A stretch of DNA of 64,000 bases from Fistulifera solaris (GCA_030295235.1 AP026148.1:248001-312000); one strand, 5' to 3'. Shown: positions 37,807-40,608, numbered from the stretch's first letter. Numbers and translations: made by a program. The notes: generated by a model from the sequence alone, not told the origin.

Positions 37807-38109
37807 AGGTAATGAATGATAATGGCCCTGAGAGACACTGTGACACGTGGCAGAAATTTTGAATTTTGACCACAAATAATATACAAACAGGCTCGAGGAT
37901 CACGGCGGCATGGCTCGACGATCACAATGACAATACTGTTACATCTTGACATCTCTTTGTGAATGAATCAGCTTTTTCCTTTATAATGAAGGGAGACAGC
38001 AAGCTTAATTGACAGTCCGGCATTTCACTTTCTTGGTACTACTAAAGCCAAATCGCTGTTGGTTTCTCTCCATTGGTGGCTCGGCATTCCTCGTTTTCTT
38101 TTCAACAAC

Positions 38110-39363
38110 ATGTTGTACGAAACACCTGAATCCTTCCAGCCAGTTCCCGAGACGGAACTGACAGAAGAATTGAAAATGAGGTTTCGTTTGCTGTGCCGCG
38201 AAATTTCTGTCCTTTATAAATTTTCGGGGGACATGGCAAATTTCATGGGGATCCTGCATCAGCTCATCACCGAACAGATCAAGGCGCATCCCATCCTTGT
38301 CAGAGTCATCACGACAGAAGCGAACACACTATCACTTCTGGGAGTGGCCTGCAAACATGCGGGTGCCCATTTTCAGGAAACGATTCGGTTTCTTATTGAC
38401 AATAATCCGCATGCCCTTTTGTGGGCGCCTTCGGTCCATGAATCACCCATTCACACACTGGTTTCGAATGGGAACTTTGCAATAATACCTTGGATTATGG
38501 AGAGGTATCCATGGGTGTCGCAGCATCAACTGTACGGAGGGAAACCGCCTCATATCGAAATGATGAAGCATTATGTTTGTGGTCGATGCGATCTGGAAGC
38601 AATTCGAAAAGTCTACCAGCTCTATCCCCAGGGGCTTCGAGAGAGAGAAGGAACAGGTTTTACCAGCAGGTACCCCTTGTTGATGAGTGTGGAAGGTTAT
38701 TGCGAACCAGATGCGGACTTTTTTATTTGGATGGCGGAACAATATCCCGAGGCAGTGTATGACGGAGTTCCGGGTTTTACGATTCTGCATCGTCTTTGCT
38801 CGTTGATGGCCCAGACAGAACGTCGAGGCGTACTCAACAAGTGCACACCAAATATGGCCAAAATTTGCCGTTTTCTAATTACCAAGCATTCGTCCCTTGT
38901 CCGTCAAACTACCAACTACGGTAGTTACTTACCGATTCACAAGCTGGCACATCGCTGCGACCGTCCCCTGGTGCGCGAGATGGTGATTCTATTGTTGAGA
39001 GCGTACCCTGAATGCGTACAAGTCGTCGCCGGCGACTCGCATCCCGCGCTGGCTACGGTCTCGTTCATTCGGCAAATGCACTCACTTGTATTGGAGGAAG
39101 TAGCGATTGAGGAGGAAATCATGACGCTGGAGAAGAATGCGCGAAATATGAACACGGCTGCAGTATTTTCGACCGATCCCATACGGTTCGGTTCTCTCTC
39201 GGAAGTCTTTTCCGCATGGGCGAACCAACGAATCGCTGATGTTTTGCTGCCACGGAGGCATCAAATCCAAGTACAGCTTGAGGATAACTACCGCCCTCTT
39301 GAAAAGAACGACGTTGATGAGTTAGCTGCGGAGTTAAATGATCGGGAACTGTTAGGACATTAG
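38110..39363 (+). CDS. Lineage-specific ankyrin-like repeat protein
   Basis: Repeated SPIH/YPLL/TILH/LPIH and (Y)PE-type motifs followed by a coiled-coil-like tail. Confidence 0.75.
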   Translation: MLYETPESFQPVPETELTEELKMRFRLLCREISVLYKFSGDMANFMGILHQLITEQIKAHPILVRVITTEANTLSLLGVACKHAGAHFQETIRFLIDNNPHALLWAPSVHESPIHTLVSNGNFAIIPWIMERYPWVSQHQLYGGKPPHIEMMKHYVCGRCDLEAIRKVYQLYPQGLREREGTGFTSRYPLLMSVEGYCEPDADFFIWMAEQYPEAVYDGVPGFTILHRLCSLMAQTERRGVLNKCTPNMAKICRFLITKHSSLVRQTTNYGSYLPIHKLAHRCDRPLVREMVILLLRAYPECVQVVAGDSHPALATVSFIRQMHSLVLEEVAIEEEIMTLEKNARNMNTAAVFSTDPIRFGSLSEVFSAWANQRIADVLLPRRHQIQVQLEDNYRPLEKNDVDELAAELNDRELLGH

Positions 39364-39422
39364 AATGGTTTCCAAAATGTGAGGGTGAATAATTGTGGAA
39401 TAATAGGTTACTTGTACGTGCG

Positions 39423-39816
39423 TGTCAGATTGAGGGTCTGGACGTCAATCAGGGTGGCTTATGTATCATGGATCGGGGTAGAAATACGACGTGATTGGGA
39501 TGGCTCTGTGGTTCGATTCCACAGTACGTTAGTATTTTAACATGGTAACGTGCAGGGTTCGAACCCGCGCGGAGTGCGTTTGTTGCCGACTCCTGAGAAG
39601 CCGGGAGGATAAAAGAACAGGGCTGGAAGCGGTCTCAAGTGAGGAGGCTGAAGGGCATAAACAGTACGGATCATGATAGTATAAGGCCAGGGAGGATGTC
39701 AGATTGAGGGTCTGGACGTCAATCAGGGTGGCTTATGTATCATGGATCGGGGTAGAAATACGACGTGATTGGGATGGCTCTGTGGTTCGATTCCACAGTA
39801 CGTTAGTATTTTAACA
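39423..39816 (+). mobile_element. TRIM (miniature non-autonomous LTR retrotransposon) with tRNA-like LTRs
   Basis: Identical 120-bp TG...CA LTRs at 39423-39542 and 39697-39816. PBS TGGTAACGTGC at 39543. PPT AAGGCCAGGGAGGA at 39683-39696. TSD CGTGCG on both sides. Confidence 0.95.
39455..39538 (+). promoter_or_regulatory. Pol III type-2-like signals in the 5' LTR (weak A box, consensus B box, T4); repeated in the 3' LTR
   Basis: TGGCTTA at 39455, GGTTCGATTCC at 39510-39520 inside a TGTGG/CCACA stem, and TTTT at 39535-39538. Confidence 0.65.
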
Positions 39817-39964
39817 CGTGCGTACCATCGGCGTCCGTGTTTAAATTGAGTGCCGAATTGCGACTGACATCAATTAAAACAAAAAAAATCCGAATCATCA
39901 TCGTCGCATCTGCTGTTGACGCAGAAGCAAACAAAAGTTTTTTCATAAACATTACTTTAGCACA

Positions 39965-40608
39965 ATGAAGCTTAGTCCGTCACTTTGTTTTGCTATCATC
40001 TTGCCCTCCCTTACCCAGGCCTTCTCGCCGAAACATCATGCGGACAAATCCTCCTGGAAGAACGTGTCCACAATCCCCCCTACGGAGACTCTCACGTTTT
40101 GGAGTGCAGCCTTCTGGTCGGTGCTAGCACCAGCAGCCTTCGCCGTATCGGGTGGTGGCTTGGACTTTGCCGGAACTGATATCAGTGGACAAGACTTTTC
40201 GAAAGGAAATTACAAGGGGAAAGATTTCACGCAAGGTGCGTTTGGCAAAGCAATCCGACATTTCATTTACGATTCCCCTAACACTTCTTCCGTGCAGTCA
40301 TTGCAAAGGGAACGAATTTCGCTGGAAGCAATTTACAGGGCTGTCGCTTTTATAAGGCGTATCTTGTCAATACGAATTTCGATGATGCCGATCTGCGCGG
40401 AGCCTCTTTGGAAGATACCAGCATGGATGGTGCCAGTTTGAGAAATACCATGGCAGCTGGAGCCTACTTTTCGGCCAGTATCTTGGATGCGAAAGATCTG
40501 ACGAATGCGGACTTTACGGATGCTCAATTTCCATTGAAAACGTTGCCTCAACTGTGTATGCGCGACGATGTGACAGATATAACACGCGAATCTCTCATGT
40601 GTCCTTGA
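39965..40608 (+). CDS. Pentapeptide-repeat protein, probably thylakoid lumen, 2 exons
   Basis: Signal TQA-FSP, lumenal AAFA leader and ADLRG/ASLED/ADFTD repeats. Intron 40236-40297. Confidence 0.88.

Follow-up and report, generated by a model that had tools for sequence, protein, structure and literature searches.

A miniature LTR retrotransposon of the diatom Fistulifera solaris with a tRNA-like LTR end complementary to its own primer-binding site

We analysed a 64-kb stretch of DNA from the pennate diatom Fistulifera solaris (the window; all coordinates are positions in it). The element at 39423–39816 is a terminal-repeat retrotransposon in miniature (TRIM): a compact, non-coding, multi-copy long terminal repeat (LTR) retrotransposon of 394 bp. 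The 3′ end of its LTR is laid out like the 3′ end of a transfer RNA (tRNA) gene, and this end can base-pair with the primer-binding site (PBS) of the same element. An earlier note on this DNA had proposed that the LTR thereby encodes the primer of reverse transcription. Our analysis leans towards a different account, in which a TRIM of the Helenus/TRIMp3 type is primed by a host tRNA and its U5 (unique 5′) region is derived from a tRNA or mimics one.

The LTR ends like a tRNA gene

A T-arm look-alike, TGTGG-TTCGATT-CCACA, lies on the plus strand at 39507–39523 (motif search and Rfam) and includes the box-B-like GGTTCGATTCC (39510–39520). It is followed on the same strand by GTACGTT (39524–39530), which looks like the 3′ strand of an acceptor stem, and by an A at the discriminator position (39531); together these bases (39524–39531) are complementary to 39546–39553. 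A run of four T residues (39535–39538, plus strand), found by sequence reading, stands 4 nt short of the LTR end and is five residues long in some copies, according to contig variants. The earlier note had described the 3′ part of the LTR in these terms (T-arm, 7 nt, A, and T-run), and both this layout and the positions that it gave for the T-arm, GTACGTT, A, TTTT, PBS, and a GACGTG at 39488–39493 were right in every case on reading the sequence. The 25-mer spanning the T-arm, the acceptor part, and the A matched the window twice, once in each LTR, against 0.00 matches expected. With both strands of the window counted, a looser T-arm motif (N5-TTCRANN-N5′, G·U allowed) matched 8 times, whereas 200 shuffles gave an expectation of 2.0; 3 of the 8 were inside the element, namely in both LTRs and on the minus strand at 39552–39568.

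The tRNA likeness is limited to the final 36 bases of the LTR, which comprise the T-arm, 7 nt, A, and a trailer with TTTT. The LTR alone is not a tRNA, and no whole tRNA was seen in it by ARAGORN or Rfam. ARAGORN found no tRNA gene across the window at default thresholds and none in the LTR at 90%. A "tRNA-Gln" call at 39461–39530, obtained at 80%, was rejected; 675 of 1000 shuffles that kept only the T-arm also yielded a call. Rfam (E up to 10) matched only the T-arm in the LTR alone (7.2 bits), and in a wider stretch it matched the T-arm plus the U5-PBS hairpin described below to a two-piece transfer-messenger RNA model (14.2 bits). No tRNA, 5S, or ribozyme match was returned by Rfam for 39300–39900 (E up to 10), so the element has neither the 5S of Cassandra nor the hammerhead of retrozymes. 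The box B (GGTTC) by which Helenus elements are recognised is present in the LTR within GGTTCGATTCC. A convincing box A (TRGCY...YGG) was not found in the LTR by sequence reading; its sole TRGCY is TGGCT at 39455–39459, with TGG at 39469–39471, and with a spacing ca. 5 nt too long this is a chance-level match.

It had also been claimed that GACGTG (39488–39493) pairs with TACGTT to form an acceptor-like stem. This pairing was indeed predicted for an isolated 44-nt RNA, with pair probabilities of 0.65–0.87, but it was no better than in shuffled sequences. The fold of a 55-nt LTR-end RNA had a z-score of −0.16 and was equalled by 79 of 200 shuffles. The claimed minihelix was calculated at −7.3 kcal/mol against a minimum free energy of −11.1 kcal/mol, i.e., 3.8 kcal/mol above the minimum, and the T-stem probability was 0.30.

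The LTR end pairs with the PBS

The PBS, TGGTAACGTGC (39543–39553, plus strand), is of the TGG type and lies flush with the CA of the 5′ LTR. All 8 bases at 39524–39531 pair with PBS bases 4–11 (39546–39553), one of them as G·U. The chance of an 8/8 match at this fixed register is ca. 1e-4 (4^-8 for Watson-Crick pairs plus the four positions that allow a single wobble). As had been claimed, the LTR's tRNA-like end with CCA added pairs with the PBS over 11 bases, and these comprise 10 Watson-Crick pairs and one G·U. The LTR-PBS complementarity is genuine and not a matter of chance.

A U5-PBS hairpin is predicted in any transcript that reaches the PBS. It spans 39503–39575 (plus strand) and has 28 bp, including 6 G·U, at −33.7 kcal/mol (folding and shuffles). 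The stretch 39460–39580 folded at −42.2 kcal/mol (z −3.14), and 2 of 200 shuffles were as good. In a 181-nt RNA context, the predicted pair probability was 1.0 for U5-PBS and 0.0 for the LTR T-stem. When the whole PBS arm was shuffled, none of 2000 sequences reached equal stability. Equal stability was reached by 6 of 2000 when the TGG and a 12-nt palindrome (see below) were retained and the rest of the PBS arm was shuffled, and by 303 of 2000 when 39567–39575 alone was shuffled. The base of the hairpin (39503–39509 with 39569–39575) therefore adds nothing significant. These controls indicate that the hairpin signal consists of the PBS 8-mer and a T-loop:T-loop pairing, the latter of which is offered by any two box-B-like motifs. 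The copy-to-copy substitutions within the 3′ arm of the hairpin (39567 and 39568) sit in a bulge.

The PBS region carries a second tRNA-like end

Motif search revealed an antisense T-arm look-alike, GCGGG-TTCGAAC-CCTGC, on the minus strand at 39552–39568, which includes the palindrome GGGTTCGAACCC. The complement of 39543–39568 reads T-arm, ACGTT, A, and CCA, that is, a tRNA 3′ end in which the spacing from T-stem to discriminator is 2 nt short. The antisense T-arm and that of the LTR (TGTGG/CCACA) differ in 3 stem pairs and 2 loop bases, and each 5-bp stem is internally paired. Because the T-arms differ, the PBS region is neither a copy of the LTR tRNA-like part nor best matched by it. It points to a separate host tRNA ending GCACGUUACCA, which would match the PBS at 11 of 11 bases as against the 10 plus G·U of the LTR. 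The palindrome is perfect, occupies 39555–39566 (one base beyond the 11-nt PBS), and is box-B-like on both strands; judging from its sequence, it could pair two RNA copies as a dimerisation site.

The element belongs to a dispersed family

Copies were studied through contigs from four sequencing runs placed on the window; such contigs show the presence of a sequence, not the starts or ends of RNA or the polymerase that made it. Uncovered stretches in runs X2, X4, and X11 were not taken as evidence. A share of 0.79 of sampled window words was present in one run (organism A), and small shares were present in several metagenome runs. No weight is given here to the small shares in X3, X5–X10, X13, X15, and X16. 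In run X1, the summed contig depth was 350–650 over the LTR, 83–139 over the internal part, and ca. 17 over the flanks. Loose ends in this run revealed at least four other upstream junctions and one other downstream junction of the LTR. Since the depth is far above that of the flanks and several distinct flanking sequences occur, the element represents a dispersed multi-copy family. Two variants of the internal region were found in X1 (organism A), a wetland metagenome run with 37 placed contigs likewise contains the element, and one contig of the RNA-library run X4 covers 39498–39689, thus crossing the T-run.

Among the contigs of the four runs, substitutions were absent from 39509–39533 and 39543–39566, and the PBS (39543–39553) had no variant in any placed contig. 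T insertions occurred after 39534 (in part of the X1 and X2 contigs) and after 39540. Substitutions were present at 39567, 39568, 39577, and beyond, and further changes were present in the 5′ half of the LTR. In the window copy, both LTRs read G at their positions 31 and 41 (39453 and 39463; 39727 and 39737). At 39727 and 39737, all contigs of X1, X2, and X11 read A, and at the 5′ LTR positions 39453 and 39463 the sole variant listed was G>T at 39463 in one X2 contig. The window copy thus apparently belongs to a minor sub-line.

Two further contigs departed from the window sequence. At a loose end after 39801, one X1 contig departs past ...CCACAGTAC and has TTACGTTAGTA further along; it suggests that in some LTR the T-arm is separated by additional bases from ACGTTA, which is complementary to the PBS. 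In X11, a 304-nt contig joins 39809 back to 39535 and so corresponds to 30 nt on top of a 274-nt cycle made up of an LTR and an internal part, which is compatible with a terminally redundant RNA, a tandem LTR-internal array like those of Cassandra, or a one-LTR circle.

Metagenomes were scanned for GGTTCGANNCC followed, after a gap of 24–44 nt, by GGGTTCGAACCC. At least 122 loci were found, and none of the 122 listed resembled the element by blastn; because GGGTTCGAACCC is palindromic, it probably drew in unrelated loci, and we suspect that convergent tRNA gene pairs fit the motif as a whole. A collection of genome contigs gave no match for a 24-mer of the PBS or for the 25-mer of the LTR. Viral contigs gave none for either and 7 for a 16-mer of CA plus PBS, none of which was followed by the palindrome. 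No other copy, autonomous partner, or host tRNA was obtained as sequence from these metagenome, genome-contig, and viral-contig scans.

Anatomy and genomic setting

The 5′ LTR (39423–39542, plus strand) is 120 bp long, begins with TG at 39423 (5′ end TGTCAG...), and ends with CA at 39541–39542 (3′ end ...AACA). A repeat search showed it to be 100% identical to the 3′ LTR (39697–39816, plus strand; 120 bp). The internal region of 154 bp (39543–39696, plus strand; sequence reading and repeat search) is non-coding and closes with the polypurine tract AAGGCCAGGGAGGA (39683–39696, plus strand), which abuts the 3′ LTR and whose final 8 bases are purines throughout. The hexamer CGTGCG was read on the plus strand on either side of the element (39417–39422 and 39817–39822) as a target-site duplication. 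The earlier note's assignment of the element to the TRIMs is borne out by the LTRs, the TG..CA ends, the 6-bp duplication, the PBS, the polypurine tract, and the multiple copies. Its dimensions are those of TRIMs (less than 1 kb in total, repeats in the range of ca. 100–250 bp, and TG..CA ends). Repeat searches identified the LTR pair as the sole long direct repeat across the window and the element as a single copy there.

None of 15 large open reading frames (ORFs) of the window that were scanned with Pfam matched gag or pol; ordinary eukaryotic families were found in 11, and 4 had no match. One ORF of the window encodes a product 100% identical to a protein attributed to Fistulifera solaris. 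The element is flanked by two ordinary genes. It starts 54 nt past the stop of the ORF at 38059–39363, and an ATG at 39966 follows ca. 150 nt beyond its end; the ORF opened by this ATG is repeat-rich and has an apparent GT..AG intron near 40238–40297. Because the neighbouring stop and ATG are so close, the element is placed in a gene-dense region, within a short stretch that is either intergenic or untranslated. The insertion site, GTACGTGCG...CGTGCGTAC (39414–39422 and 39817–39826), includes ACGTGC, a hexamer that is also in the PBS, and another LTR junction in X1 (loose end at 39422) is preceded by ...GCGTGCGACG. This shared hexamer may be coincidental or may reflect a preferred target. The 5′ half of the LTR (39440–39466) contains GGACGTCA, near a cAMP-response/bZIP site, with TTATGTAT ca. 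20 nt downstream. These two motifs are a possible RNA polymerase II (Pol II) promoter, which would compete with a reading in terms of RNA polymerase III (Pol III).

Probable priming by a host tRNA and its alternatives

In the account that we hold to be the probable one, if with reserve, a host tRNA with the 3′ end ...GCACGUUACCA would serve as primer for minus-strand DNA, as is the case for other TRIMs. This primer tRNA, for which the sequence predicts the T-arm GCGGG-TTCGAAC-CCTGC and the 3′ end GCACGTTA, would have left its imprint in the PBS and in the antisense T-arm that follows. The final 36 bases of the LTR would correspond to the 3′ piece of a gene from the same tRNA family, either captured or mimicked, and a gene reading TGTGG-TTCGATT-CCACA-GTACGTTA is a candidate source. 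Uptake could have occurred by template switching of the reverse transcriptase (RT) onto a co-packaged precursor of the primer species. By analogy with retroplasmids (PMC8363836), a biased capture of packaged primer precursors would explain why a single tRNA family is involved. In read-through transcripts, the sense tRNA end of U5 and the antisense one of the PBS region would fold into the hairpin because they are only 11 nt apart. The hairpin would mask the PBS until the primer anneals, and the box-B-like T-arm possibly recruits Pol III factors. Priming by a host tRNA is the better-supported account: it agrees with what is generally known of TRIMs and Helenus, with a tRNA imprint of its own in the PBS region, and with an LTR that makes a poor tRNA. 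Derivation of both motifs from the same host tRNA and a U5-PBS hairpin had been listed as alternatives in the earlier note; both are real alternatives and fit better than a self-encoded primer.

Several observations weigh against this account. The tRNA ending GCACGUUACCA is deduced and was not itself seen, and ARAGORN found the window to be without a tRNA gene. Canonical tRNA geometry is seen in the LTR version but is missed by 2 nt in the complement of the PBS region; the PBS region is therefore no faithful imprint of a standard tRNA. The same tRNA family is needed in both places because an unrelated tRNA would make the 8-nt match a coincidence of ca. 1e-4, and a shared family is unlikely a priori (ca. 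1/40, a rough estimate for a random draw) unless capture was biased. In the available parts of PMC10886601, no such LTR-PBS match is reported for the Helenus families of Kojima. Finally, the perfect 5-bp T-stem of the LTR is needed neither for the hairpin nor for box B.

We consider it unlikely on the whole that an LTR-derived tRNA-like RNA, or a CCA-tailed genomic 3′ end, is trimmed after A39531 and primes on the element's own PBS. In its trans form, a rather unlikely one taken singly, short LTR transcripts, either ended at the T-run or excised from longer RNA, would be trimmed by RNase Z after A39531, receive CCA, and anneal to the PBS of read-through genomic RNA. The expected primer would read ...CCACAGUACGUUACCA, with U at the position of 39525 and a non-templated CCA. 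This form would account for the canonical geometry of a tRNA 3′ end followed by a T-run, for the 8-nt match at the exact register and its extension to 11 by CCA, and for a perfect T-stem that neither hairpin nor box B requires. The LTR end at 39542 demands a primer that pairs with TGG, i.e., one with a CCA end. Selection on the priming end alone would be expected to leave an acceptor strand that matches the PBS and T-stems that differ. In the contigs of the four runs, the T-arm, acceptor part, and PBS have no listed substitutions while nearby parts vary, and because the X4 contig crosses the T-run, read-through RNA may exist. The G·U can persist too: a review of Ty3 states that the PBS is not perpetuated by copying of the tRNA and cites the same for Ty1 (PMC5371799). 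For this reason, we dropped a "PBS refresh" argument, by which a lasting G·U would exclude LTR RNA as the primer. However, the short CCA-tailed species is a postulate. The LTR shows no whole tRNA, clear box A, or significant acceptor stem, so the promoter and the quality of the RNA as a substrate for RNase Z and the CCA-adding enzyme are doubtful. In read-through RNA, the cis U5 arm fills the PBS at a probability of ca. 1.0, and a trans copy gains only 3 pairs over it. Furthermore, the antisense T-arm behind the PBS is unlike the LTR T-arm and points to another tRNA, and the apparent extra bases of the X1 variant (one contig, 39801) would break the geometry. We also know of no precedent for such priming, and according to the available text of PMC10886601 it was sought in Helenus without success.

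The same trimming could act on the genomic RNA itself. A full-length RNA would be cut after the discriminator of the 3′ LTR and CCA-tailed, and the 3′ end so produced, on the same molecule or on another copy, would anneal to the PBS and prime. Plant viral RNAs and Neurospora retroplasmids carry tRNA-like "genomic tags" of this kind. The sequence facts that speak for the trans model apply equally, and an R (repeat) region reaching to 39531 with a U5 of 11 nt (39532–39542) is consistent with the LTR end. A retroplasmid RT is likewise known to recognise a 3′ tRNA-like structure with CCA (PMC8363836). The structural doubts are also those of the trans model, and a primer consisting of a whole genome makes the strand transfers awkward. 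To our knowledge, no LTR element primes from the 3′ end of its genomic RNA, and we regard this route as very improbable.

It is likewise rather unlikely that the pairing was selected only as a structure in cis. U5 would then be tRNA-like merely through its complementarity to the PBS region, the T-run would be loop sequence, and the hairpin would serve to mask the PBS, in packaging, in dimerisation through the palindrome, or as a mimic of the primer tRNA that attracts the partner's RT. Folding predictions are dominated by the hairpin, whose stability requires the PBS 8-mer (6/2000 with TGG and palindrome kept), and the inter-copy substitutions fall in its bulge. All 6 of its non-Watson-Crick pairs are G·U and none is A·C, which fits selection at the level of plus-strand RNA. 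Ty1 and Ty3 are known to have a structured U5-PBS region and an extended PBS that pairs with the primer's T-arm (PMC5371799). Nevertheless, the hairpin base is not significant (303/2000), and any pair of box-B-like motifs would yield the T-loop:T-loop pairing. The hairpin leaves 3 bases of the LTR T-stem unpaired, and yet this stem is perfect; the canonical 7+1 spacing with the adjoining T-run resembles a real gene end and not a by-product. A Tf1-type mechanism, in which RNase H would cut the 5′ arm of the hairpin for use in cis, has the least to commend it and is hardly to be expected here. GUACGUUAGUA (39524–39534) does pair with the 11-nt PBS at 10 of 11 bases, with 2 G·U and one G·G, and self-priming is known in Tf1/sushi and predicted for plant lineages (PMC6317226, PMC6934838). 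However, the 8 nt of template between cut and PBS (39535–39542) are too short for an R region and strand transfer, and a PBS that starts with TGG is typical of CCA-ended primers.

Significance

If a host tRNA is the primer, tRNA-like LTRs of the Helenus/TRIMp3 type would extend to diatoms, and the element would be a natural case of a tRNA-like module and a PBS from one tRNA family. This case would bear on the acquisition of such modules, for which RT template switching onto packaged primer precursors is a possible route, and on how access to the PBS is controlled. If the LTR did supply the primer, the element would be the first LTR retroelement to provide a tRNA-type primer from its own LTR and an exception to the published statement that tRNA-like LTR sequences take no part in priming. 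It would also be relevant to the long-standing puzzle of why tRNAs are used by retroelements. A non-autonomous element would then be decoupled from the host tRNA supply, and its exposure to silencing based on tRNA fragments could be altered. On either reading, LTRs of this kind are a source of tRNA-like pseudo-hits in genome annotation.

Comparison with known systems

No description of a diatom TRIM was found in a literature search judged by titles and the beginnings of abstracts. A full-text search for the PBS string and its complement gave only unrelated primer sequences among the matches listed, judged by their titles. The available main text of a paper on diatom retrotransposons (PMC2806351) holds no PBS or tRNA information.

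Cassandra carries a 5S RNA with a Pol III promoter and terminator in its LTR, and in ferns its PBS lies 8 nt from this module (PMC7215508). The diatom element is similar in having a module like a small-RNA gene in the LTR with the PBS close by, at 11 nt, and Cassandra too is non-autonomous; it occurs in tandem arrays (PMC7215508). In contrast, the Cassandra module is a 5S RNA, and its PBS, TGGTATCAGAGC, is unrelated to the module.

Elements of the Tf1/sushi group resemble the diatom element in that their own RNA upstream of the PBS is complementary to it over ca. 11 nt inside a larger fold. In Tf1, RNase H releases the initial 11 nt of the transcript as the primer, and CCA plays no part. The diatom element differs in leaving no room for R and in having a PBS that begins with TGG. 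In Ty1 and Ty3, the U5-PBS regions are structured, and element RNA beside the PBS is complementary to the primer's T-arm (PMC5371799), as would be the case in the diatom element; unlike the latter, they have no sense copy of a tRNA end in U5. The RT of Neurospora retroplasmids recognises RNA that ends in a tRNA-like structure and CCA, and by template switching it can take up the 3′ ends of tRNAs (PMC8363836). Retroelement RNA with a tRNA-like 3′ structure is common to both systems, whereas the retroplasmids are mitochondrial non-LTR plasmids whose cDNA starts at the CCA and not at a PBS.

The closest relatives in kind are the TRIMs with tRNA-derived LTR sequence named Helenus, which are grouped with Cassandra and Ajax as TRIMp3 and have been reported from fungi, animals, and Selaginella at sizes of 311–1263 bp (Kojima 2024, PMC10886601). 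Their primers are inferred to be host tRNAs that are common to autonomous Copia or Gypsy partners. A self-primer was raised and then rejected for them (section 3.6) because, according to the text available, no Helenus shows complementarity between LTR and PBS. The statement of the earlier note that no described element is primed in this way thus holds in the literature searched, but TRIMs with tRNA-like LTRs had been described and the primer idea dismissed for them. The available supplement of PMC10886601 had no match for "diatom", "Stramenopil", "Phaeodactylum", or TGGTAACG.

The diatom element shares with Helenus a tRNA-gene-like segment in the LTR, box B (GGTTC), a T-run near the LTR 3′ end, a TGG-type PBS, and a polypurine tract. 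Its 394 bp are within the size range of Helenus, and Helenus-1_SMo of Selaginella likewise has a 120-bp LTR, in which the tRNA-like part is followed by TTTT, a few bases, CA, and then the TGG PBS (PMC10886601). The diatom element differs from Helenus in showing only the 3′ third of a tRNA with a doubtful box A, in a target duplication of 6 bp instead of 4 or 5, and in its diatom host. Above all, the tRNA-like 3′ end of its LTR is complementary to its own PBS. This LTR-PBS complementarity, absent from Helenus as published in the text available to us, is what is new in the diatom element.

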